A model generated the notes under the pieces. It was not told the DNA's origin. It worked only from the letters and a program-made list of their open reading frames with translations, and did not search any database. A stretch of DNA of 64,000 nucleotides from Hydrolagus affinis. Taxonomy: Eukaryota. Made by a program: the position numbers and the translations under genes. Below are positions 14,736-62,996 of this stretch, piece after piece (position 1 is the stretch's first letter; each line of letters begins with the position of its first letter). Location: NCBI GenBank assembly GCA_012026655.1, contig JAAILG010001079.1:1-64000 (forward strand), in the 5' to 3' direction.

Positions 14736-16824
14736 TATGTGATGGTACAAAAATAATTAAGCATCATAAAGAAAAACAAAAGGACATTATGCCCAACCTT
14801 TTCTGATGACCCTGGAATTCTTACATTCAGGCTGTAAAAGCAACAGCAGAAATTGAATAATTGAGACTGTTAACATTGTACTTTATAAACTTGTAGTTTA
14901 TAAAGTAAAGCCATTCAACCAAATGAGATGCCTGAAATAACCTTACTGGTAGCTACTGGTGAGGGTTATGCAACTGACTCTCATATTTATGTAAATATGT
15001 TCTTAACATGAAATTCAAAGATGAATGGCTCTTGACTCTCCCGACTTAGTATTATAATGGAACATCGTTTCACAGAACAGAGCAACAAAGTTTGCTGAAG
15101 AAGCATACAGTCGTGCCAGAAGTCCATGTAGACGAGCATTTGGATATGTAAATGGAGGCACAGACTACTGTGGGCCACTTGGAATAAAATACCATTTCTG
15201 CACTCTGCAATCAATCATTATTTGCTATTTCCAGCTCAGACACTAATAGCAATAATGAAATTCGGTCCACAGTCTCTATGTTCCTGATGCTCATCCTGCC
15301 TATTTGCCAGAACATGATTGACTGCAGTCACGAATGTTATGACTACAGGATTCTCCCTGGAGATTAAAACCTTCTCGTTTTACCAATAAAACTCCATTGC
15401 TTACCTGCTCTTCAAAGAAAAAGATTTACAGAGTAGCTCTGTTAAGATCAACTTCAACTATTTTTTGCTTGAGGTCAAATTTCATATTCATCTGACAATC
15501 ATTTAAAGGCAGTTTCTTTTCATCCATAGCTTGATAACTTAACATACAAATCACTGAGCAAACAGAGTCTGTAATGTTCTGTTGGCAGATTTTCCCTCTG
15601 GTGTCAATCCTTCCCTACTGTGGTTACTTTGCACAGCTGTCTGTGACCCTATATTGTAAGTTAATATGATGATAATAATTTTTCCAACACCTGAAACACT
15701 GTTGATGGGACAGAGGGGGAAGGGATACTTTATCCAGTGGTAAAGCAATTATTTGTTGGTGAAATTTAATGTTTTATTTTTTTTAAAAAAATACTGGGAA
15801 TTATTCTCCTTTTGGTAACCTTAACAACCATTTAGCCATGTGTGCTATAATGAGATTTCCTATTATGGATACATACTGACATATACACCAGCAATAGCAG
15901 GTACATTAAGTACAGTAAGTACAAACAGGAGAATAAGTGCCATTTAATATTATGGAGATATATAATCAGAGCCCTAGCTCAAGAGACTAGCTGTACTTCT
16001 ATATAATATTCAGTTTAGCTATCATATTTCTTTGACCTTATCTATATTAAGTATGAAATAGATGAAAAATCAGATGTTGGATGATAATTTCACTGCGTTC
16101 CCACAATTAACATTTTGCACCAACATTTTTTGATCAGCTGGATGTCTGACACGTGCAGAAATTCATTAGTATACTTAAGAGGATCTAAATATGATAGAGA
16201 ATTCTATATCTATTGTATTCGTGCTACTACATGGTGGTAAGTCATTGCTTTCAATATGTGTGCAATCTGGAACCGATGGAGCTAAATTGAACCCATTGGT
16301 AATAAACATACCACAGAAAAACAAATCTGAGTCTTTTAACATCAGCAACAATAACTGCAAGTTCTTCATTGTTTTGCTAATTCTCAGGTGGGGTGCAATG
16401 AGATCTTGAGATTGTGTAATGAAACTGCCCCTAGGCATTTCCATATGTAGTTCTGCTGCCTTCTTCCTGTAAAGTTTTTGTGTCAATTTCAACGTATTGA
16501 AAATGGAAGATGCGGAAGGGCTTTGAACCCCTCAGGGTTGTGGAATCCGGACGCAATGGACTCCTCAGGCTGTGAACTTCACATGCTGTTCGGTGGGTCC
16601 TTTTGAGACCAAATAAACTGTGACAAAGGGACAATGACACATATGTGAAGCTGCAGGCATATGTGATGTATCTAAGTTGGATTTACACAAAACTCAATAG
16701 AGCTCCCCATTCGTCCTCAATAATGAGAGCTTCAAATAATACCCTTTAGCTGAGGATAAAATATATACCATTTCTGCACTCTGCAATCAATCATTATTTG
16801 GCTATTTTTCTGAACATGATTGGA

Positions 16825-19570: not shown

Positions 19571-19714
19571 CCCAAACAATGATATTGGTTCCTTGATTAG
19601 TTGTGTGTCTTTCAGTACAAGGTGAAACATTGAAACATTAAATTCTTGGCTCTGACTGAGATTGCCCCACCTACCCCACTCTTGAAAGTGGCTCCTCTTT
19701 CCTTTTATTCGGTA

Positions 19715-19860
19715 ATAATAGTAATAATACTAATCTTTCCATTTGATATAGCGCTTTTCACATCTTCTAAATGCCCCAAAGCGCTTCACAGAATATACTG
19801 TAAAGAGAATTGACTGTTTATTTGTGGTACCATTCCACAGCTGGCTGCCCTATGGCTCCT
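19715..19860 (-). mobile_element. SINE 3' fragment
   Basis: (AAT)n..ATTTGATATAGCGCTTTTCACATC..AAAGCGCTTCACAGAATATACTG. Confidence 0.75.
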
Positions 19861-28465: not shown

Positions 28466-30546
28466 ATGTAGTTGAGAAAGGCTCCTGTATTGTGAAAATC
28501 GATCTTGTAATGGTAATATGGAGTGCATTCACCAGACTGCCATGTGTTCTGAGCTCCAACATTTATTTTAGCTAGCAGTAAGAAGAAAGCATAAAAAAGA
28601 AATGAAATGAATTTGACCTTTGTTTCTAAATGCCACTTTGTCATATTGCATCAAACTAGTGCCTGATATGAATAAACGAGGGAAAAATACATTTCTAATA
28701 ACATTTCGATACATAGATTCTCGTCATGTCAACCGTTTGCGAGTAAATTCTGTAAAGTCAGACCAGTAACACTGGATTATTTTGGAATTTGTTGTCGCTA
28801 TTCTGAGGTCATCTTCAAATGCACATTAATTTCAATGTGATCTGCTGCTGTCATTTGTATAGCAGAATATTTAATCATGTATCCCTCACAGGTAAAACTG
28901 ACTGGAGATATTCCTTCAGTTCAAATCAATAACAGCCCTTTTCCAGCTCCATAAAATACTTTGCTAAATCTTTGAAGTGACTACACTTGGGTGACCACTG
29001 AGCACAGAGTAAATGTATCCTGAGTTATATCATATGGGAACACTGGTGAACGACATCAAAGGAAATCATTGCTTAGGCACCTTTGAAGAACAATTGGAAA
29101 ATGTGTCTACCCCTCTTTGTTCCTACATTTTGCGGCCAGCGCCAGTGTGTGAGAAGGCCATAAACAAACACACTAATTGGTAGCTCAGAACAGCTGCAGA
29201 TGTGGGTTTTCCTGTTACACTATGTCACCAGACTTGACAAGAATTATAAGATCTGTATCAGCTTCCAATCAAATACTTCTCATGCCACATGTCTCTTGTT
29301 CAGCTCAGTATTAGTATTTGTGTTCAAACAAATGTGATGGGGAGCCAGGGAGGGAGGGGGGAATTTGCCAACCTGTATGGGCTGGAGGTAATTTGAATGG
29401 AAAAGATTAATTGCTGTACATACAGCATAGTTTAGAATCAAAACAGTCACTCTAAACATATCTTCAGCATTTACATGAACTGAATAGGGAGCATTTCACA
29501 ATTGTATGTTTACAGGAGATAAACACTTCCAGCTCTCCCACCTTTTTAAAACTGACATTGCCTTTAGAGATAAATTCAATCAATGCAGTGCAACCCTTTT
29601 ATAATGAAGCATGATTTACCACATAAAAATGTCATTACAAGAGGAGTTTCGCTATATTATGTGCCATCAAAATGAGTGAAACTGCATCTGGGCTTGAAAC
29701 TCTTCTTGTAAAAGGGGTTCCATTATTACAAGATTGCATTGAAACCTGAGCTTGTACAGCACATATTATGCGTTGGATACTATCTCCCAGATTCCCAGAA
29801 AAATAAATACAAGAAGCATAAGCTCTGCAATAAATATTTCAGAATATGCATAAGAAAATTATGTTTTATTCAATCCCATTTAGGTATTAATATATTCCAT
29901 GTGATGAAAGATTATTAAATTCAGTTTTATTTGCTTTGAGCTGAAACACTTAAGATGCAACATTTGCTACATGTGGAGGTTTAAAATGTTAATTTTTTGT
30001 TATTAATTGTGACTACAAGATTAAGAATTTAATCAAATATTAGTGCAAGCCCATTTTACACTACAGCAGATACAAAATGATTATTAATGCACATTCCAAA
30101 TAAAAATTCAACTATCTGGTGTATAATTGTAATTATGAATTAATAAGCATTCTCCATCTTCTGGTTGCAAGAGTTAGTTTTATCCAGATTAACTTAATCC
30201 AATCAAGGGAGGAAATTAAATTTGGTTTTGGGCAAAATAATCTATGATTTGAGATGAGACACTAGCCACCATCAAATAAAGTGCAGAAAAATAACAAGCA
30301 AATAATTGAACACAAATAAATCATAGTATCTGATAATTTGCAGTTAGCTTTAGGCAATACAAGAATTACAGATAAAGAAAGAGTTACGAGGTTATGAACC
30401 GGTCTAGTGAGGGGATTGAACTGGAAATTGGATAATAATTTTAACCTCCTCGGAATACAAGATTTGGTAGTATAAAATGGTTTTGTTTCAAACTGATAGT
30501 TTGAAATGCTCTCTGTATTTGGTAGCCAATTCATAACCATTCAATG

Positions 30547-30848
30547 ATAATAATAATCCTTGCATTTGATATAGCACTTTTCACATCTTCTAGATGTCTC
30601 AAAGAACTTCACAGAAATATAATGTAAAGTGAATTAACTGTACATTTGTGGGTGAAACATGGCAGCCAATTGCATACAGCAGTGTCTGACAAACCGTCGT
30701 AGATTGAAATGACCAATTTATTAAAAAAATTCTTGACGGATTATTATTAATCCGTGTCGAGTAAGGAAACTTGCCCAAGATTTTGCCCTGCCTGGAATCG
30801 AACCCAGGCTTGTAAGACGAGTGCTCTAATCACTGAGCTACAGGACAC
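30547..30848 (-). mobile_element. Full-length tRNA(Val)-headed SINE (short variant)
   Basis: Minus strand: TAGCTCAGTGATTAGAGCAC (A box), TTACAA anticodon loop, GGTTCGATTCC (B box), body, L2-like tail and (ATT)n. Confidence 0.9.
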
Positions 30849-31129
30849 CCCATGAGATCGATGCAACAGGAGTCATTCTGGGAGATCAAAATTTACAGGC
30901 ACATTAGTTTCTTTAAAAATAGATATATTGGCTTCAATGTTTCTCAATTTCTAGTCTTCAAGCATTTCTAAAAAAGAAAATGTCTTCACTCACAAGTGAT
31001 GAAAACTGCAATGTTTCATAACTGATTTATGTGAATCTGATAATTATTGTGCATTTGTCATTCAACATTGAATTGCACAGCCTATAATCTCATTCATCAG
31101 AAGAGCCTGTGAAGGATACAAGACTGAGG

Positions 31130-35586: not shown

Positions 35587-36819
35587 ATTTATTATCTGCC
35601 AATAAAAAAGAGAGAAAAGAAAGAGCAAACTAAAGTACAGATAGGCTTCATAACTTGGGTCTTTATAGTCCTGGCATAATCATTTCTGTAACACAGTGGA
35701 AGACCATTCTACAGTAGTACCTTTCAATACACAATTGTGTTGCTGACAGCACAGATATTCTCTGTGGGTACAACCCAAAAGAAGCCCGTTGTTTGTACCT
35801 TGCCTATTAGGCGGTTGGTGAGATATTGAACTATATAACAATGTTTCTCTGTGTAGATTTCAAGTCCAAAGGATTATTTTTACACATTGGTAGAGGCCTC
35901 ACATTTCTCATAGTCTTAGAGAACATTTTGTACAATATTAAATTTGGTGAAAATGGTGTCTAAGGTTAAATGTAAAAAAATTTACTTCTCAATATTCCAA
36001 CATATTTTATTGCAACAAATTTGTATTGATTGTCATTTTCTCCCAAAATTATCAAATGTGAGATTTGAATGATTCCATTGATTCTAATTTCTCAACTTCC
36101 AGATGGTCTCAAACTGTAAGAAATACTGATCAGATTTACTGTTCTGTCATAACTATATCATACAACTGATGTAATCTTAGAAATTATTATGTTTTTCATA
36201 TACCTCCCTATGCAATGTATATTTGTTGTAAATCAGTGTTAGTGATGTGCCTGCCAATACACACACCTTTGTAGAATATTCATGTCTTGTTTGTTAAAAT
36301 TTGCAGAGTTCAAGTGTTTCTCCCACTTAAACTTCAATTCCCTGATGATCCTCCAAGTACTGTACTACAGTACTATTTACGCAGAGCATTTGATTTAAAG
36401 AAGGCTCCAGCATTATGGAATTGAGGGGTTATACAGTGATAAAAACAGTAAAACAGTAAAACAAGGTTATCATCCAAGTACCACAGTTTGTTAACTATTA
36501 GCTTTAAAACTGGGGATGTCGTTTTTTACAGGTCATGAGTCAATTTTAGCTAAAACCCTTAAACTGCATCATTACCTGTTTCCTCCACAATAACAATAAA
36601 TGGCCTGCAAATTGTCTTTTATCTATTTCTACAGACAAAAACGTGATTCCATGAACAGTACGCCATTAATATGTGGTTATAATCCTTATTTTCTGTTCCT
36701 AAATGGAGGTTCTGTAATGCTGTAATAGGGGTGCTAAATAAATGCAAGTTGCTGTGGTTCCACCAACTGCCAAAAGGTGGGAAAGTCTGAGTTATCAGGA
36801 GGTGTCTTTTTACAGGTAT

Positions 36820-37886: not shown

Positions 37887-38295
37887 GAGGGTGGAGGGAA
37901 AGTGGGGGAGTTGGGGTGACCGATGGGACCATTGAAGAGGAGGGTCTTGAGGCGGGACTTGAAGGAGGTTAGCGAGGGGGTGAGGCAGAGGGACTGCAGT
38001 ATGGAGTTCCACAGGTTAGGGGCAGAGTGGCTGAAGGCTTGCCTGCCAATGGTGGGGCATGTGGGTCAGGAGACATGGAGCAGGCTAGAGCCTGCTGTGA
38101 AGAGGGAGCGGGCAGGTTGGTAGGGGGTTAGGAGGTCGCAGAGGTAAGCAAGGCCATGGAGGGCTTTGAATGTGAGGACTAGGATCTTGAATTGAATCTT
38201 CTGGGTGATGGGGAGCCAATGAAGTTGGGCGAGAATGGGGGAGATTGGGTAACGAAGCTTAAAGTGGTAGAGGACCGCAGGGTTCTGGTTTAGAA
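37887..38295 (-). mobile_element. L2 LINE ORF2 C-terminal fragment
   Basis: ORF 38066..38338 contains PISPILAQLHWLPITQKIQFKILVLTFKALHGL, the L2 hallmark. Confidence 0.9.
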
Positions 38296-38569
38296 TGATG
38301 ACACTAAAACCTTTTACTGTAAATGCTCTTGTAAACACACTACAGTACTAGGATCTCTGGGATGAGTTCAGGTGAGGAGATTTCAGGGTCCAGGTCTGCC
38401 AAATGATCCTCCAAGTACTGTACTACAGTACTATTTACTGTACTCAATACAATAGTACACAATAGTAATAATAGTAATAATACAATAGTAATAATAGTCT
38501 ATTTTTGCATCACGTGAATTTCAATTGTCAGGTGACATAGGCAACGTCAGTCTGCTGTCCCTAAAAGGA

Positions 38570-38871: not shown

Positions 38872-39548
38872 TAATAATAAATAATAATAGCATTTGATGT
38901 CATGTTTTTCACATTTTCTAGACAACAACAACAAAATTGCATTTATAGAGCGCCTTTCACATCGGGAAGACGTCTCAAAGCGCTTCACAGTATATACTGT
39001 AAAGTAAGCTGACTGTATATTTGCTGGCAAAATTGTAGACAATTGCAGACAGTGTCCCACAAACAGTCGTGGATTTAAGTGACCAATTTAATAAAAAAAA
39101 TTCTTGAGGGATTACTATTAGGCGTTTGGAGTAAGGAAACTTGCCCAAAGTTTCGCCCTGCCAAGAATTGAACCTAGGTCTCTTGCTTGCGAATGCAAAA
39201 TCCTTGTCCTCACCTTCAAGACCATTCACGGCCTTGCCCCCGCCTATCTCTCCGACCTGCTGTCTCCCTATCAGCCTGCCCTTTCCCTCCGCTCAGCCAA
39301 CTCTGGCCTGCTCCACGTCCACCGCCCTAACCACCCCACCATCGGTGGCCGAGCTTTCAGCCTCTGCTCCCACACTGTGGAACTCCATCCCGCAATCCCT
39401 TCGCCTCACTTCCTCTCTTTCCTCCTTCAAGGCCGGTCTCAAGACCTTCCTCTTCGACCGTGCCTTCTGCTCCCCTCCTAACTCTTCCCCCTCTCCTACT
39501 CTCCTTGTTGTTGTTGTGAGGCGAGTGTTCCAACCAGTGAGCTGCAGG
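38872..39548 (-). mobile_element. tRNA-headed SINE (short variant) carrying a second L2-type tail and split by an L2 insertion
   Basis: Body at 38872-39190. The head resumes at 39518-39548 (GAGGCGAGTGTTCCAACCAGTGAGCTGCAGG). An extra (AAC)n L2 tail sits at about 38922-38975. Confidence 0.85.
39196..39517 (+). mobile_element. L2 LINE 3' fragment
   Basis: KILVLTFKTIHGLAP..YLSDLL..APTLWNSIPQSLRLTSSLSSFKAGLKTFLFDRAF, ending in (TTG)n. Confidence 0.9.
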
Positions 39549-43650: not shown

Positions 43651-44734
43651 TCTTCACTTAACACTTGATTCATCATTCGAACCTTGAACATCTCCTTGAC
43701 TGCAATCAATGCCACTCCATGATCAGACAAGAGCATAAGTCAATAAATGTATGTGTGTGTGTGAGGGGAGAGGGGGAATCTCCTCCCTCAAGGGTATGGT
43801 GTTAAGTGAGTGAAGATAAAACAGAGACTGCAACAACAGCATACGCAAAAAAAGACAGAATATTTCAAATAAGCGTCCAAATGAAAAAGTTTAAAAGTAT
43901 AGCTGATGTATAAATTCTCCAATGCGCATTAGTCAACCGAGTAGTACACCTTCTGCATGCTATTTATTAGCTAGTTTGCATCTACAGTGTGTCACTTACT
44001 ATGTTTGCTTGAAATGCAGTCTTCACATATGTGAACTCTCAGCTTCTGTTTTGGATTGAAATCTGGCAGCAGAGAATGATGGTGAACAGATCAAGCTCTT
44101 TCTTGGGGGTCATTGTCAGGATGAGATGTTCAGACAGCTGTTCATGGTCCCTTGCTAGTCACACAATGCATAAATGATTTGAAATTATAACTTTCCTGAT
44201 AATACCAAGCTACATAACACTTGAATGATTTAAAAAGATACACACTGTTCAAAGGTATCTGGATTATTCAGAAGGTTTCTTAAGGAGTGGCAGATGAATG
44301 TTGGTACATGTGTAGTGTAATCGGAAACATCATGCCTAAATCCCAACCAGATATTTATTTGTGGGATTATGTATTGCCTCCAATCAAAAATGGACATAAG
44401 CAAAGTGCTGGAGGAAGGTGATCATTCTATTAAAGTTTCCTGTCAATACAAAAGTGCTTTCAATAATGTTCATTAAATACCTGCTTGCAATTTAGAGGAA
44501 ATGTAGGCAGAACATTTATGGTACAAAGGTCATTCAACCCATCATGTCTGTTTTAGTCTCAGTTCCCCCACTGGAGGTATGCACTCTAACCCAATTTCCC
44601 TGTTCTTTCTCTATCATGTCTGTTTTGGTGCGAGTCTCTCAATTGAAGCAGTCCGGCGTGAAGGGCGCTTATCTTGCAATTTGTATCTATTCTAATCTAT
44701 CTTCTATGGCTTAGCCCATCAACTAGTTGATTCC

Positions 44735-44955
44735 AAAAACAGAAGTTGCTGGGGAAACTCAGCAGATCAGGCAGCATCTGTGGAGAAAGGAAAAAGAGTC
44801 AATGTTTTGGGTCTTCAAGTTCTGACGAAGGGTTGTAGACCCGAAACATTGACTCTTTTTCCTTTCTCCATGGATGCTGCCTGACCTACTGAGTTTCCCC
44901 AGCAACTTCTGTTTTTGTTTCAGATTCCCAGCATCTGTAGTATTTTGTGTTTTGG
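44735..44955 (+). mobile_element. Palindromic Penelope-like non-autonomous retro-insertion with 14-bp TSD
   Basis: 80-bp inverted arms at 44735-44814 and 44837-44916. Identical AACTAGTTGATTCC at 44721-44734 and 44956-44969. Hammerhead core in the centre. Confidence 0.8.
44818..44854 (+). ncRNA. Minimal type-I hammerhead ribozyme motif
   Basis: AGUU-CUGACGA-A-GGGU(UGUAG)ACCC-GAAA-C-AUU/GACU. Both conserved boxes are present, with a 4-bp helix II and helix I AGUU/GACU. Helix III is vestigial. Confidence 0.7.
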
Positions 44956-45384
44956 AACTAGTTGATTCCGATCCCTTTGAATGTTATCAGTTTCCTTGTG
45001 CATTAGTTTGGTTATTTGGTGACATTTTCAGATGATCACAGTGAGGGATGTCAGAACAAGGTTTTCCTCCTTTGGCATCAGAGTCTGAAATTGCTCACGG
45101 CCTTAGCCTAAACCATTCATTTTAAATTTAAGTTTGTGCAAAATTAAAAAAAATTCTTCAACCCAGTTTTAATCTGGATGCTGGTTTTCCACAGATCTTC
45201 GGCAACTTCTCAACAACAGCTTTTAAATCAAGATTAAGTCAGAATCAAGGATCCCAGATCACAAAAAATACAACCAACTGCAGAGTCAATTTATTTTGAG
45301 AGTCAATTTATTTTGAGAATATACCATAAATTTAGTTTTTGAAGATCATCCAGTACAAAAACAACAATTGAATACTCCTCGCAG

Positions 45385-45500
45385 TTCCTTGCATTTGATA
45401 CAGTGCTTTTCACATCTTATCGACGTCTCAAAGCGCTTCACAGAATATACTATGAAGTGAATTGACTGTATATTTGTGGGCGAAATGCGGCAGCCAACTT
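45385..45500 (-). mobile_element. SINE 3' fragment (young, CpG-retaining)
   Basis: CCTTGCATTTGATA..CGACGTCTCAAAGCGCTTCACAGAATATAC..GGGCGAAATGCGGCAGCCAA. Confidence 0.8.
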
Positions 45501-45599
45501 GCATTTATTTTGCACCCTTAATATATATCCAGTATGACAGCATCATGATATTTCCCACCTCCAATCTTTTTATTGCTAAATGCACTGAAAATGCTGTTT

Positions 45600-46750
45600 C
45601 ATGGACTTGGAACTCATATGGTCCAAGCTGACGTATTGTTCGAGGTGCCATCCTTCAGATGAGATGTTAACCCAAGGTCCTTCTACCTGTTCAGTTTGAT
45701 GTTAAAATGCCAATAATCTCTCAAATAATATTGATCACTCACAGCATAAATGTTTGTGGAACATTGCTGTGTGCAAAAGTGGCCACTGTGTGTACCATGC
45801 CAGCCTCTGACACCGCTTCTCCCTCATCCACCTTAGTAAGATCAACCGTAACCCTAATCCTGGTTCAAGTCCTTCACTTTGTCTCCTCCAAAGCTTTCTC
45901 CTCCCACCCCCGCCTGGTCACTTGTGGTGTACCCCATAATTGACAGAACATTTATGGTACAAAGGTCTCCATCCTTGGCCCCCTCCTCTTACTTATCTGT
46001 ATGTCCTCTTGGCGATGTCATCCATAGACAATGGGATAAACTTCCACATTTGTACAGATGACACTACTTCTTCTCCTACAGCTGCGGTTGCAGATCTGAT
46101 GATGTTCTCTCAGCTTGTTTGGCAGACATCAGGTCCTAGATGAGCAAAACCTCCAACAACTAAATGTTGATAAGACGGAACCCTTATCCGTCAACATCTT
46201 CTATACTGTGACTCTAATCTCCGCAACCTCCCCACCCTATTCCTCAGGCTTACCAAACCAGTGCTCAACCTAGGCATCAGATTCAACCCACAGCTGTCCT
46301 TACTTCCCCACATCTGGTCCCTAACCAGGACTGCCTTCCTCCACTTCTGCCACATTGCCCGCCTCCGACTGTATCTTACCATGGACTCAGGCAAAACACT
46401 CATCCATGCATTCGTCAATTCCCAACATATCCCTCATGCCCTCCGATTTACCATTGATGACCGCGCTGTTTGCCACTATGCCTCGAAACTCTGGAACACT
46501 CTTCCTCTATGCCTCTGCCTTGCTTTTACCTTTCCCATCTTCGGGTCGTCATACGAAGACTGTGGTCCTCCGCTACTGTCGAGCACTCTGGGACTTTACC
46601 CTGCATGAGGGGCACTATGTGAATGTAAGTTGTTGCTGCTCTTGTGTACCTATAAAATACACAGTCAAATACACTTTATAGTGTATCCTGTGAGGTGCTC
46701 TGAGATGACCACCCAATGTTAAAGGTGCTGTATCTAATGCAATGATTATT
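45600..46750 (+). mobile_element. Deu-domain SINE split by an L2 insertion
   Basis: Deu motif GAGGTGCCATCCTTCAGATGAGATGTTAA at about 45640. The tail resumes after 46650. Confidence 0.7.
45797..46642 (+). mobile_element. L2 LINE relic with RT-domain remnants, 8-bp TSD
   Basis: CGVP..GSILGPLL..PLGDVI..GINFHICTDDT (YADD-like) and NLGIRFNPQLSLLPHI..AFLHFCHIARLR. TSD TGTGTACC at 45789-45796 and 46643-46650. Confidence 0.85.
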
Positions 46751-48585: not shown

Positions 48586-48684
48586 CTTTAGATGAACACA
48601 AGTTCTGCATGATTCATTCTGCAATCAAAAATGCAACACAGGTCCAAAAATGAAAGATTCATAAAAACAACCAATTAGTTAATC

Positions 48685-48819
48685 GGGTTGTGACAAAAGG
48701 TCATTGACCTGAAATGTTAACTCGTTTTCCTCTCACCATAGATGCTGACCTGCTGCATATTCCCAGAGACTTCTGCTTTCAAATCAGATTTCTAGCGTTT
48801 GCAGTATTTAGCATTTTTT
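48685..48819 (+). mobile_element. Decayed copy of the Penelope-like hammerhead element, 10-bp TSD
   Basis: Homologous to 44818-44955 (GATGCTGACCTGCTG..TCCCAG..CTTCTG..CAGATT..GCAGTATTT). TTAGTTAATC at 48675-48684 and 48820-48829. Confidence 0.7.
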
Positions 48820-49733
48820 TTAGTTAATCTGTAATGTGTTTGCAGGTAGTCATATTATAGTGAAGATGCACAGTTATACTACAGCCAGTGTCAAACAAAG
48901 AGGTATAAATGTACATCCGAGAAAAATCCATTACAAGCATACATTCTCCATCCTGCTACATTTTGCATCCACCAAACAAAATTTAACATATGACTTGTCT
49001 GTTTTTTAAAATCAGAAATTTCTAATGTTTTATTCAAGAAGTGATTTATATGGAAAGCACCATTTTTAATACTAATTTAAAAATACCTAGTTAGGATATA
49101 ACGGTACCCCAGTATTTCTCTTGTGGTTATGCAGCAGTGTTATATCAACTATTTTTAGTTTAGATATTTATTATGAATAAACTGAAAACACAGGAGATAT
49201 AAATTAAGCAAGAGATACAACCCCCTATTTTAGGTAAACATTACCCTCAATCCCCATCCATTCAGTCCTGAAGACATTCTCTAGAATGACCACAATTTAC
49301 TCATTTCTGCTTTCAGCCCTTTCACTATTAATACAAAGCTATGAACTACATTTATCTAATATCTATGTTAAAACATCTCAACAGCACATCTATCTGCAGT
49401 GACTGTCTGAACACCAATTAACGAGTTTTATGATCTTTTCTCCAATTCAGAAAGCCTGAAATATTTTCACAGTATCTGTCATTCTATCATCTCGCTGTGA
49501 TAAAAATGCATGCAAACACAGAAAGCTTCACAGAGGCTCTGTCAATCAGTACTCAGCCAGCATGTACTCAAAGACACTTTTCATCTCGCCTGTTTTATTC
49601 CACATTAAAGGAACTGTCAATCTACAGGCAGGGAATAGGTTTCAGATAATCTGCCTCACTTTTGGTGTTCCAGTCACATACTGTCATCTAGTTTGGGTTC
49701 TCCTCCTTTAAAATTGTTGAACAGATTCAAATC

Positions 49734-59155: not shown

Positions 59156-59299
59156 CTCTCCATTGGAATAAAACATAATAAAAAGCAAAGGATTGATCAT
59201 AATGGGATGAGATCCCCCTCAGGTTCAAGGGGTGTAGCGTCTAATTCACACTCAGCAGAACTGAAGTAATCCATACTGAAATGTCACAATTGTTTCATC

Positions 59300-59410
59300 C
59301 ATAAATATACAGTCAATTCACTTTTTAGTATATTCTGTGAAGCGCTTTGAGATGTCTAGAAGATGTGACAAGCGCTATATCAAATGCAAATAATATTATT
59401 GTTATTATAA
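59300..59410 (+). mobile_element. SINE 3' fragment
   Basis: AATATACAGTCAATTCAC..GAAGCGCTTTGAGATGTC..AGCGCTATATCAAATGCAA. Confidence 0.8.
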
Positions 59411-60417
59411 TAATTGTATATGAGGAGAACATCTGTTTGTTAGAAAATGCTTTAAATACAGAAGCGATATAATACATGCATATAATGCCTAATACCAAAT
59501 TTATATTGACAATTTATACCTGAGTCACTTTTATTCAGGCCCCAGGAGATTTCTAATTATACCTGAGCCTGGATTATTTACTTCATTATTGTATACCTTA
59601 AGCATCCAGCATTTTGGAACCCAACCAACATCTGTCCAAAGGGCTTTACAAAAACATACACTTCAAAGACAAAATCAAAGAGGTCATTCCATGTGAGAAA
59701 TTACAAATGTATGCTTTTGAAGTTTGCTTTGTTGTGGATCAATTTTCAATATACATTACTGTCCATTTAAATTCTGTCAAGTTCATAGGATCTTCAGTGC
59801 CCTCAGAAAGCAAGATGTTTCATAGTACAGGCGGACCTCAATAATGCTTTATTATGCTGGTGTTAAATTGAGAGATGTACAGATTTCCCTCTTCCTGGTA
59901 CCTGACTTGATGTGTTCAGGTACAATTGCCAAAGGCTGTAATGTTCCTGTTAATTAGTTCTGGAGCTAGGTCATAAAAAGCAGCTAACTATGTGTTTTTT
60001 TCTTATGATTAATAGCTGCCAATTTAATTCAGGAAGTGAATGGAAAACTGGAGATCACATCTAAGTGTTATTCGAGTCACTTTTGTAGTACCACACTAAA
60101 TTGCACTTGTAATTGATCTGATCCTTCAAGTTGCCCACATTGGGGTTTGATATGCATTGATTTGTTACTAATAGCAACTTCTGCCAGTAACTGGTAGTGT
60201 GTTATGCTGACCTGTAGGAACTCTTCTCCGGTATGGGATATATTTCCAGTTAGCAGAGTTTCCAATGGGTGAGATTGATATCCTTCCAGTTAACATTAGG
60301 AGTTGGTATTTGTGACTAGGAATTCCTGGTACTAGTAATACCTATTACAAATCATTGCACATTATATTTCTTGGCTCCCTTATCAAATTTATGCAGTCAG
60401 TGTGGTGAGAGATTATA

Positions 60418-62179: not shown

Positions 62180-62996
62180 ATCGCTCCCTGGTTCACCAGC
62201 CACCTCTGTCCCTCAAGGGTCAGGTGTGGGCCACTGAACGCACCTGGCTCAAATCTGGCCTAACCAGTCTAACATTTTCCAACCTTTCTCCCTCTCCTCT
62301 GTCATCACCACCATAATCTATCATGAAGCACACCACCTTGGCCCCGTCCACAACCCTCTTGTTACCTTCCTGCTCCACCTCCTCGCCGCTCTACATGAAA
62401 GGTGCTCTATAAATCTAATTTTGTTATCGGCCTCCCCCATCTTTTCCCTCTATATGCTGCAGATCATCCAAAACTCTGCATCTTGTGTCCTCTCACGCAC
62501 CAGGCTCCGCGACCCCATGACCCCCACCCTCACCTGGCTCCATTGGCTCCCCATCCCTCAGAGGATAGAATTCAACATCCTTGTCCTGACTTTCAAGGCC
62601 CCCCATGGTCTTTGCTTCCTCCTAACATCTCTGACCTGCTGATGCCCTATCAACCTGCCCTCTCCGTTCAGCAGGCTCCAACCTGCTCCATGTCTTCTGC
62701 CCAACTCACCCTACCATTGGTGGCTGGGCTTTCAGCCTTTCTACCTTCATTCTTTGGAACTCCATGTCACAATCCCTTTGCCTTGATCCCTCCCTTGCCT
62801 CCTTCAAGGCATGACTTAAGACCCTGCTTTACGACCATGCCTTCAGCTGCCACACCTACCTCTCCACCGTCCCTCATCCCAACCCTGCCCCCCCCTTTCC
62901 CCCATTCTCAGGTCCTGACCTCTGACTGCTCAGTGCCTTGGGACATTCCCCCAACATGAAAGACACTCTACAAATGTAATTTTGTTGTTATTGTTG
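62180..62996 (+). mobile_element. L2 LINE relic (ORF2 pieces and 3' end)
   Basis: ERTWLKSGL, then LQIIQNSASCVLSRTRLRDPMTPTLTWLHWLPIPQRIEFNILVLTFKAPHGL, C-rich UTR and (TTG)n tail. Confidence 0.9.

Follow-up and report, generated by a model that had tools for sequence, protein, structure and literature searches.

A hairpin insertion in a Hydrolagus affinis contig is very probably a heavily 5′-truncated Penelope-like element carrying a hammerhead predicted to be inactive

The palindromic insertion near position 44,850 of the 64,000-nt Hydrolagus affinis stretch analyzed here (the window) is very probably a heavily 5′-truncated insertion of a Penelope-like element (PLE) in a very-high-copy repeat, composed of a direct module with a tail and an inverted copy without one, flanked by 14-bp direct repeats and carrying a hammerhead motif that is predicted to be inactive. 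The locus itself is likely an ordinary copy of the repeat and a real PLE stump. We describe the anatomy of the insert, its hammerhead and predicted folding, the family to which it belongs and the occurrence of the same core in unrelated families.

Results

Anatomy of the insert and its flanking repeats

The insert is 221 nt long and lies between two 14-mers that are 100% identical (Table 1), as the original prediction had it; the chance of such an exact match, with ±10 nt of slack at each boundary, is about 4e-6. These exact flanking repeats support a retro-insertion with a target-site duplication (TSD), and the view that the insert is without coding capacity was also upheld. The inverted arms had been described as 80 nt long around a 22-nt spacer, which is correct on a strict reading; on extension they span 44734–44818 and 44833–44917, giving arms of 85 nt with 93% complementarity (6 differences in 85) around a spacer of 14 nt, and the start of the right arm is corrected from 44837 to 44833. 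The outer end of the left arm abuts the left 14-mer exactly, and an unpaired tail belongs to the direct copy only. The GAAA box of the inverted copy reads AAAA. The predicted fold energy of the hairpin is −147.5 kcal/mol (z = −18.5), and none of 200 shuffles was equally stable.

Table 1. Coordinates, strand and basis of the features in and around the focal insert and its second window copy
Feature	Position	Strand	Basis
Left 14-bp TSD copy, AACTAGTTGATTCC	44721..44734	.	Exact repeat search, boundary chance estimate
Inverted PLE end module lacking the tail; runs from within hammerhead helix II/loop II to internal 3′ end site	44735..44818	-	Arm alignment; family end site 44916–44920
Direct PLE end module (a pLTR fragment), beginning with first base of hammerhead helix I	44818..44955	+	Self-match with second window copy, family contigs
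Minimal type I hammerhead motif	44818..44854	+	Descriptor, folding, palindrome survey, family reads
Helix I; CUGACGA+A; helix II	44818–21/44851–54; 44822–29; 44830–34/44838–42	+	Descriptor
GAAACAUU, cut predicted after 44850; A44848 disrupts the helix III palindrome	44843–50	+	Descriptor
38-nt tail, direct copy only	44918..44955	+	Arm comparison; family 3′ ends 44953–44954; 30–40 bp tail in literature
Right 14-bp TSD copy	44956..44969	.	Exact repeat search
Second family copy, older and with one arm; 72% identity across 135 nt	about 48685..48819	+	Window self-comparison
Left 10-bp candidate TSD of second copy, TTAGTTAATC	48675..48684	.	Control 9/5000 random boxes
Right 10-bp candidate TSD of second copy	48820..48829	.	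Direct-repeat search, control 9/5000

The hammerhead motif

The RNAmotif descriptor in Fig. S7 of Cervera & De la Pena (2014), which specifies a helix I of 3–7 bp, CUGANGA(N), a helix II of 3–7 bp and GAAANNUH, was re-coded as a script and run over both strands of the window. It matched once, at 44822 (AGUU / CUGACGAA / GGGUU-GUA-GACCC / GAAACAUU / GACU), and 300 dinucleotide-shuffled versions of the 64 kb together gave 1 match; the match is far from chance. As the sole descriptor match in 64 kb it bears out the hammerhead core boxes that had been seen at the center of the hairpin, and the published descriptor supports their assignment to the PLE-type minimal type I hammerheads (min-HHRs). In min-HHR numbering the predicted cut after U44850 is placed correctly, and helix II, present as described, is better drawn with 5 bp closing a loop of 3 nt. 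The tiny palindromic helix III of the original prediction is absent from the focal copy, in which positions 15.2/16.2 are C/A and ACAU stands for ACGU. The proposed Rfam check was run as a covariance search over two stretch sizes and returned no hammerhead family at E ≤ 10, its only matches being microRNA hairpins, all well under the gathering thresholds; the Rfam hammerhead models presumably miss forms that have no helix III.

Elsewhere the helix III palindrome is found in 93 of 104 motif sites (other families, among the matches listed, L108–L110 left out), and C-A at 15.2/16.2 in 4 of the 37 short-register sites among the matches listed. Latimeria 3, a published representative, is also non-palindromic with C-A at these positions (PMC4209133), and with both of these precedents the broken palindrome is no proof of inactivity. 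The loose-end consensus of the family RNA (435 reads) has GGGTC/GACCC, GAAACGTT and the palindrome ACGT, from which the focal copy departs at T44834, A44837 and A44848, two of them CpG-type changes; the ACGU palindrome is kept by at least part of the family and lost in the focal copy. Since both arms share all three changes, the template likely carried them already. Independent decay of the shared changes in both arms is possible, and the CpG at 44871–72 has decayed differently in each arm. Judged from the sequence, the self-cutting motif is real and the hammerhead likely an inherited passenger.

Folding of the hairpin

The pair probability of helices I and II is approximately 0 in the full hairpin, which supports the original view that the hairpin sequesters the 3′ half of the ribozyme. 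The penalty for adopting the ribozyme fold was calculated as 30.4 kcal/mol for the whole element and 25.6 kcal/mol for a transcript ending at 44860, as 16.9 kcal/mol for a transcript starting at 44800 (about 19 nt of left arm) and 7.4 kcal/mol for one starting at 44810 (about 9 nt), and, without the left arm, as 4.1 kcal/mol for the direct copy and 0.8 kcal/mol for 44818–44860. With a penalty of 25–30 kcal/mol, and with the ACGU dimer palindrome lost in the focal copy, the suggestion that cleavage is controlled by folding was not supported. In these models the hairpin acts as a lock on the ribozyme fold and not as a switch, and the ribozyme of the focal copy is predicted to be inactive; given the penalties with the left arm present, a read-through transcript would keep it shut.

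Repeat family and second window copy

Four runs (DNA runs X11, X12 and X14 and RNA run X21) were mapped to 44250–45370 at 80% similarity. Contigs of the family at 80% similarity or more numbered 20,823, 2,590 and 4,280 in the three DNA runs, a level at which contigs mix subfamilies and summed depth does not equal copy number. Mapped depth fell almost wholly on the element, mostly on its right-hand module, and the focal sequence is a member of a very-high-copy family. In the loose-end rows listed, the 3′ ends of the family form two clusters in the three DNA runs, at 44916–44920 and 44947–44954, about 35 nt apart. Among the six loose-end rows listed for each run, X11 has 117 contigs at 44920 and 120, 153 and 337 at 44947, 44953 and 44954; X12 has 23 and 21 at 44919 and 44920 and 38 and 89 at 44953 and 44954; and X14 has 65 and 81 at 44916 and 44920 and 63 and 147 at 44947 and 44954. 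In the focal copy the inner of these sites is where the left arm stops, and the direct copy extends to the outer one. Upstream of 44818 the loose ends carry a common C-rich consensus (agreement 0.37–0.51 among the rows listed), which argues that part of the family continues upstream and that the focal copy is 5′-truncated relative to that part.

Joints leading from the left arm to the right part make up 10 of the 15 listed (of 64), each with a different pair of from and to positions and, in X11, with one contig each. Since the listed joints differ in place from contig to contig, the palindrome was likely made anew at each insertion; this variation, together with the concentration of depth on the right-hand module, counts against the palindrome as a fixed design of the element. 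On the model of the original prediction the insert would be a non-autonomous retroelement, palindromic by design and mobilized as a single unit of 221 nt, whose hairpin gates the ribozyme. The clean TSD, the intact core boxes and helices of the direct copy and a ribozyme fold that is nearly accessible once the left arm is removed are all in keeping with such a unit, but the fold is penalized with as little as 9 nt of left arm, the independent CpG-type changes in the two arms (at 44871/44872 and 44843) fit neutral decay, the second copy in the window has no left arm and the junctions differ between contigs. We consider this reading very unlikely.

A one-armed insertion could instead have gained its second arm later, apart from integration, through fold-back repair or template switching during replication. 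One-armed copies do exist, and the junction overlap is only about 1 nt, but in the focal copy the left arm stops at the inner 3′ site of the family and runs exactly up to the TSD, and the geometry of arm, tail and TSD recurs in unrelated families, which makes later acquisition of the arm highly improbable.

The second window copy has a degenerate core (GTGACAA / GAAATGTT), and its 5′ start lies within about 2 nt of the point at helix I where the focal direct copy begins. The octamer TAGTT(A/G)AT is common to the TSDs of both copies (44724–44731 and 48676–48683), with 7 of 8 bases identical, a likeness reached by 401 of 20,000 random 14/10-mer pairs (post hoc, n = 2); a target preference may possibly lie behind it. 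DNA transposons generate TSDs of fixed length. A miniature inverted-repeat transposable element (MITE), or a DNA transposon of the fold-back kind, in which the 80-bp inverted repeats are terminal and the hammerhead match is incidental, would be small, non-coding, long in its inverted termini and high in copy number, as the family is; the direct repeats of the two window copies, however, vary in length (14 bp in the focal copy versus 10 bp in the second), the 38-nt tail stands between the right arm and the right 14-mer, so that the ends are asymmetric, and the descriptor match is far from chance, so that we regard a DNA transposon as extremely unlikely. A hairpin RNA co-opted by the host, as a microRNA or endo-siRNA precursor or an editing site, would account for the near-perfect 85-bp stem and the sub-threshold Rfam microRNA matches, but those low scores reflect generic long stems and the insert is young (arms differing at 6 of 85 positions), and we find the idea scarcely credible.

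The same core in unrelated families

A pattern derived from the focal core was found at no fewer than 106 metagenome loci and 4 genome-contig loci (L001–L110), and two patterns gave 0 matches in viral contigs. None of the 110 loci listed resembles the focal family beyond the core (best match 28 nt). Among the matches listed, all in unrelated families, a head-to-head arm is present at 47 of the 91 loci with enough flank. A direct repeat of at least 10 nt occurs at 8 of 49 head-to-head sites, in every case 27–44 nt beyond the end of the arm, compared with 1 of 1499 in a cross-locus control; the other 41 of the 49 have no direct repeat of that length. Proteins matching RT/GIY-YIG are found at 16 of the 110 motif loci listed, and at L107 the motif is preceded, at a distance of 90 nt, by the end of a GIY-YIG ORF with 87% identity to a coral protein. 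L107 (3001–3967) is a contig of a bacterial metagenome-assembled genome with an animal-type PLE end, which is likely host contamination of the bin.

Because the search pattern was built from the focal core, this architecture is general for the motif class, and the parent of the focal family is not identified by it. The link to an ORF, known from other families with the same core, likewise supports the motif class and not the parentage of the focal family. A tblastn search of the window with 42 PLE-like proteins for a PLE ORF gave no match at E < 0.05. Elsewhere helix I pairs in register at 82 of 104 sites; four shifted alignments give 0–3 sites each, but a shift of +2 gives 29 (matches listed). 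Two registers of helix III were observed in L001–L106, ACGU (37 sites) and ACAUGU (67 sites), among the matches listed, and these covary with helix I (ACA/UGU versus CUC/GAG) in families that have one core in common.

Flanks, RNA reads and the wider window

The right flank (44972–45085) has zero depth in all four runs. An X11 contig spans 44250–44732 and ends 30 letters later, as expected where a high-copy repeat begins, and an X14 contig stops near 44669. No empty-site joint is present among the 15 listed (of 64), the right flank being without coverage. Run X21, which is from another organism and of which about 27% was read, placed 7,152 family reads, in both orientations, on the element; just 130 of them reach 99% similarity or more, flank depth is below 1, and no pile-up of read ends was seen on the element among these family reads. 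Places with A>G/T>C number 10/12 in this RNA, close to the 8/10 in the DNA run of the same organism. At 44919 and 44953 the X21 loose-end consensuses, built on 511 and 516 reads with an agreement of 0.68, point towards strong expression of particular copies of the family in that organism.

No match above the curated Pfam cut-offs was obtained for the 270 frames of at least 55 aa in the window, nor was a host exon found there; a bacterial promoter scan, irrelevant to the insert, gave 0 sites. Decayed RT-associated LINE fragments at 37919–38299, 39191–39467, 46189–46425 and 62319–62956, which we take to be L2-like, match a Callorhinchus milii protein, and a nearby RT-like frame has its best match in a Callorhinchus milii protein at 77% (1 match among 10 candidates). 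An abundant interspersed SINE-sized repeat is present at 45386–45504, 19703–19827, 30543–30849 and 59288–59412 and in many other window copies. Exact or near-exact repeats of 36 nt (36345–36380 and 38403–38438, 2.1 kb apart) and 43 nt (15189–15230 and 16765–16807, 1.6 kb apart) are unusually long for TSDs. The focal element is bracketed by a 24-nt exact direct repeat (44508–44531 and 45944–45967, 1,436 nt apart), to be read as a large TSD or as a templated insertion, and a perfect tandem duplication of 17 nt lies at 45282–45315.

Discussion

Three marks of insertions by endonuclease-positive (EN+) PLEs are present in this material: a one-sided tail of 38 nt together with two discrete 3′ ends in the family, an inverted 5′-truncated copy adjacent at the 5′ end, and direct repeats that vary in length (14 bp in one window copy, 10 bp in the other). 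The mechanism that we think likely follows Frangieh et al. (2024) and Craig et al. (2021): an RT/GIY-YIG protein supplied in trans by a PLE would nick both strands of the target 14 nt apart, after which one cDNA would be primed at the end of the tail (about 44954) and the other some 37 nt upstream of it, at the internal site (about 44917). The two cDNAs would each stop short, one at 44818 on the 5′ edge of helix I and one at 44833 in helix II, and would be joined head to head with an overlap of about 1 nt, gap filling then yielding the TSD. As the predicted cut site is spanned by both copies, the RNA that served as template was likely uncut. This template could have been an entire PLE or a shorter derivative that is non-autonomous. 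In intact PLE transcripts the ribozyme would be expected to work as a dimer or with the help of protein.

A more specific proposal, which we put forward tentatively and think rather unlikely, is that the family is a SINE-like non-autonomous PLE derivative of about 137 nt in a cartilaginous-fish lineage, whose template RNA would start, or on which the RT would stop, at the 5′ edge of helix I, and which would have made very many insertions, with no need of cleavage, at targets resembling TAGTT(A/G)AT. It is suggested by the start of both window copies within about 2 nt of helix I, by the broken palindrome that both arms share and by the 7 of 8 bases common to the TSDs. As for a tRNA-derived SINE, ARAGORN (a tool that misses decayed heads) reported 0 genes in the window, and no tRNA head was recognized by eye. 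If the SINE-like proposal were true, thousands of natural insertions would make the model of PLE priming at two sites on two strands testable.

The locus taken alone matters little, being a decayed copy of an abundant repeat; what it offers is a small and clean illustration of the PLE insertion signature. How PLEs form inverted repeats and tails, and what purpose their hammerheads serve, could be studied in the family, which provides natural insertions in large numbers. Hairpins of this kind also mimic MITEs and microRNA precursors when sequences are annotated. Searches of the published literature, outside repeat databases and the supplements of the 2026 preprint (Li et al.), which may hold one, turned up no chondrichthyan family of PLE hammerheads.

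Comparison with known systems

The comparison draws on the works cited here and on PMC8969392, PMC6765202 and PMC4350176. The typical Penelope structure comprises an inverted pLTR, a 31-bp tail and an 8–10-bp TSD (Arkhipova et al. 2013, PMC3846280), and an inverted 5′-truncated copy with a tail of 30–40 bp at one end is described by Craig et al. (2021, 10.1101/2021.04.23.441226). The focal insertion is like these complex insertions of EN+ PLEs in its head-to-head inverted 5′-truncated copy, its tail at one end (38 nt here), its variable TSD and the hammerhead within the repeat. It is unlike them in being cut down to the last ~137 nt, with no ORF remnant.

The min-HHRs as defined by Cervera & De la Pena (2014, PMC4209133) are palindromic at 15.2–16.2 and of low dimer activity; dual min-HHRs lie on opposite strands about 100–700 bp apart, and most copies are single and truncated. 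The focal motif shares with them a 4-bp helix I, CUGANGA with an extra nucleotide, G10.1-C11.1 and GAAANNUH, and differs in its C/A at 15.2/16.2 and in its host, no cartilaginous fish being among the 56 motifs of Fig. S3 in that study. Non-LTR retrozymes, which form tandem arrays, are also non-coding, PLE-derived and equipped with a type I hammerhead, and are reported in the one chondrichthyan sampled (Li et al. 2026, 10.64898/2026.07.22.740005). They are defined there by a tandem arrangement in which two or more successive units each have a complete hammerhead, whereas the focal element is a single inverted insertion; its inverted arrangement with one complete motif rules out a non-LTR retrozyme.

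In PLE insertion as described by Frangieh et al. (2024, PMC11167929), both strands are cut and extended, the RT has two start sites that match the tail, and the hammerhead is protein-assisted, its cleavage being unnecessary for insertion. Poseidon of Anolis (PAc) is autonomous and biochemically tested, whereas the focal element is known from sequence alone; like PAc in that study, it would have had two RT start sites matching the tail and used uncut RNA for insertion.
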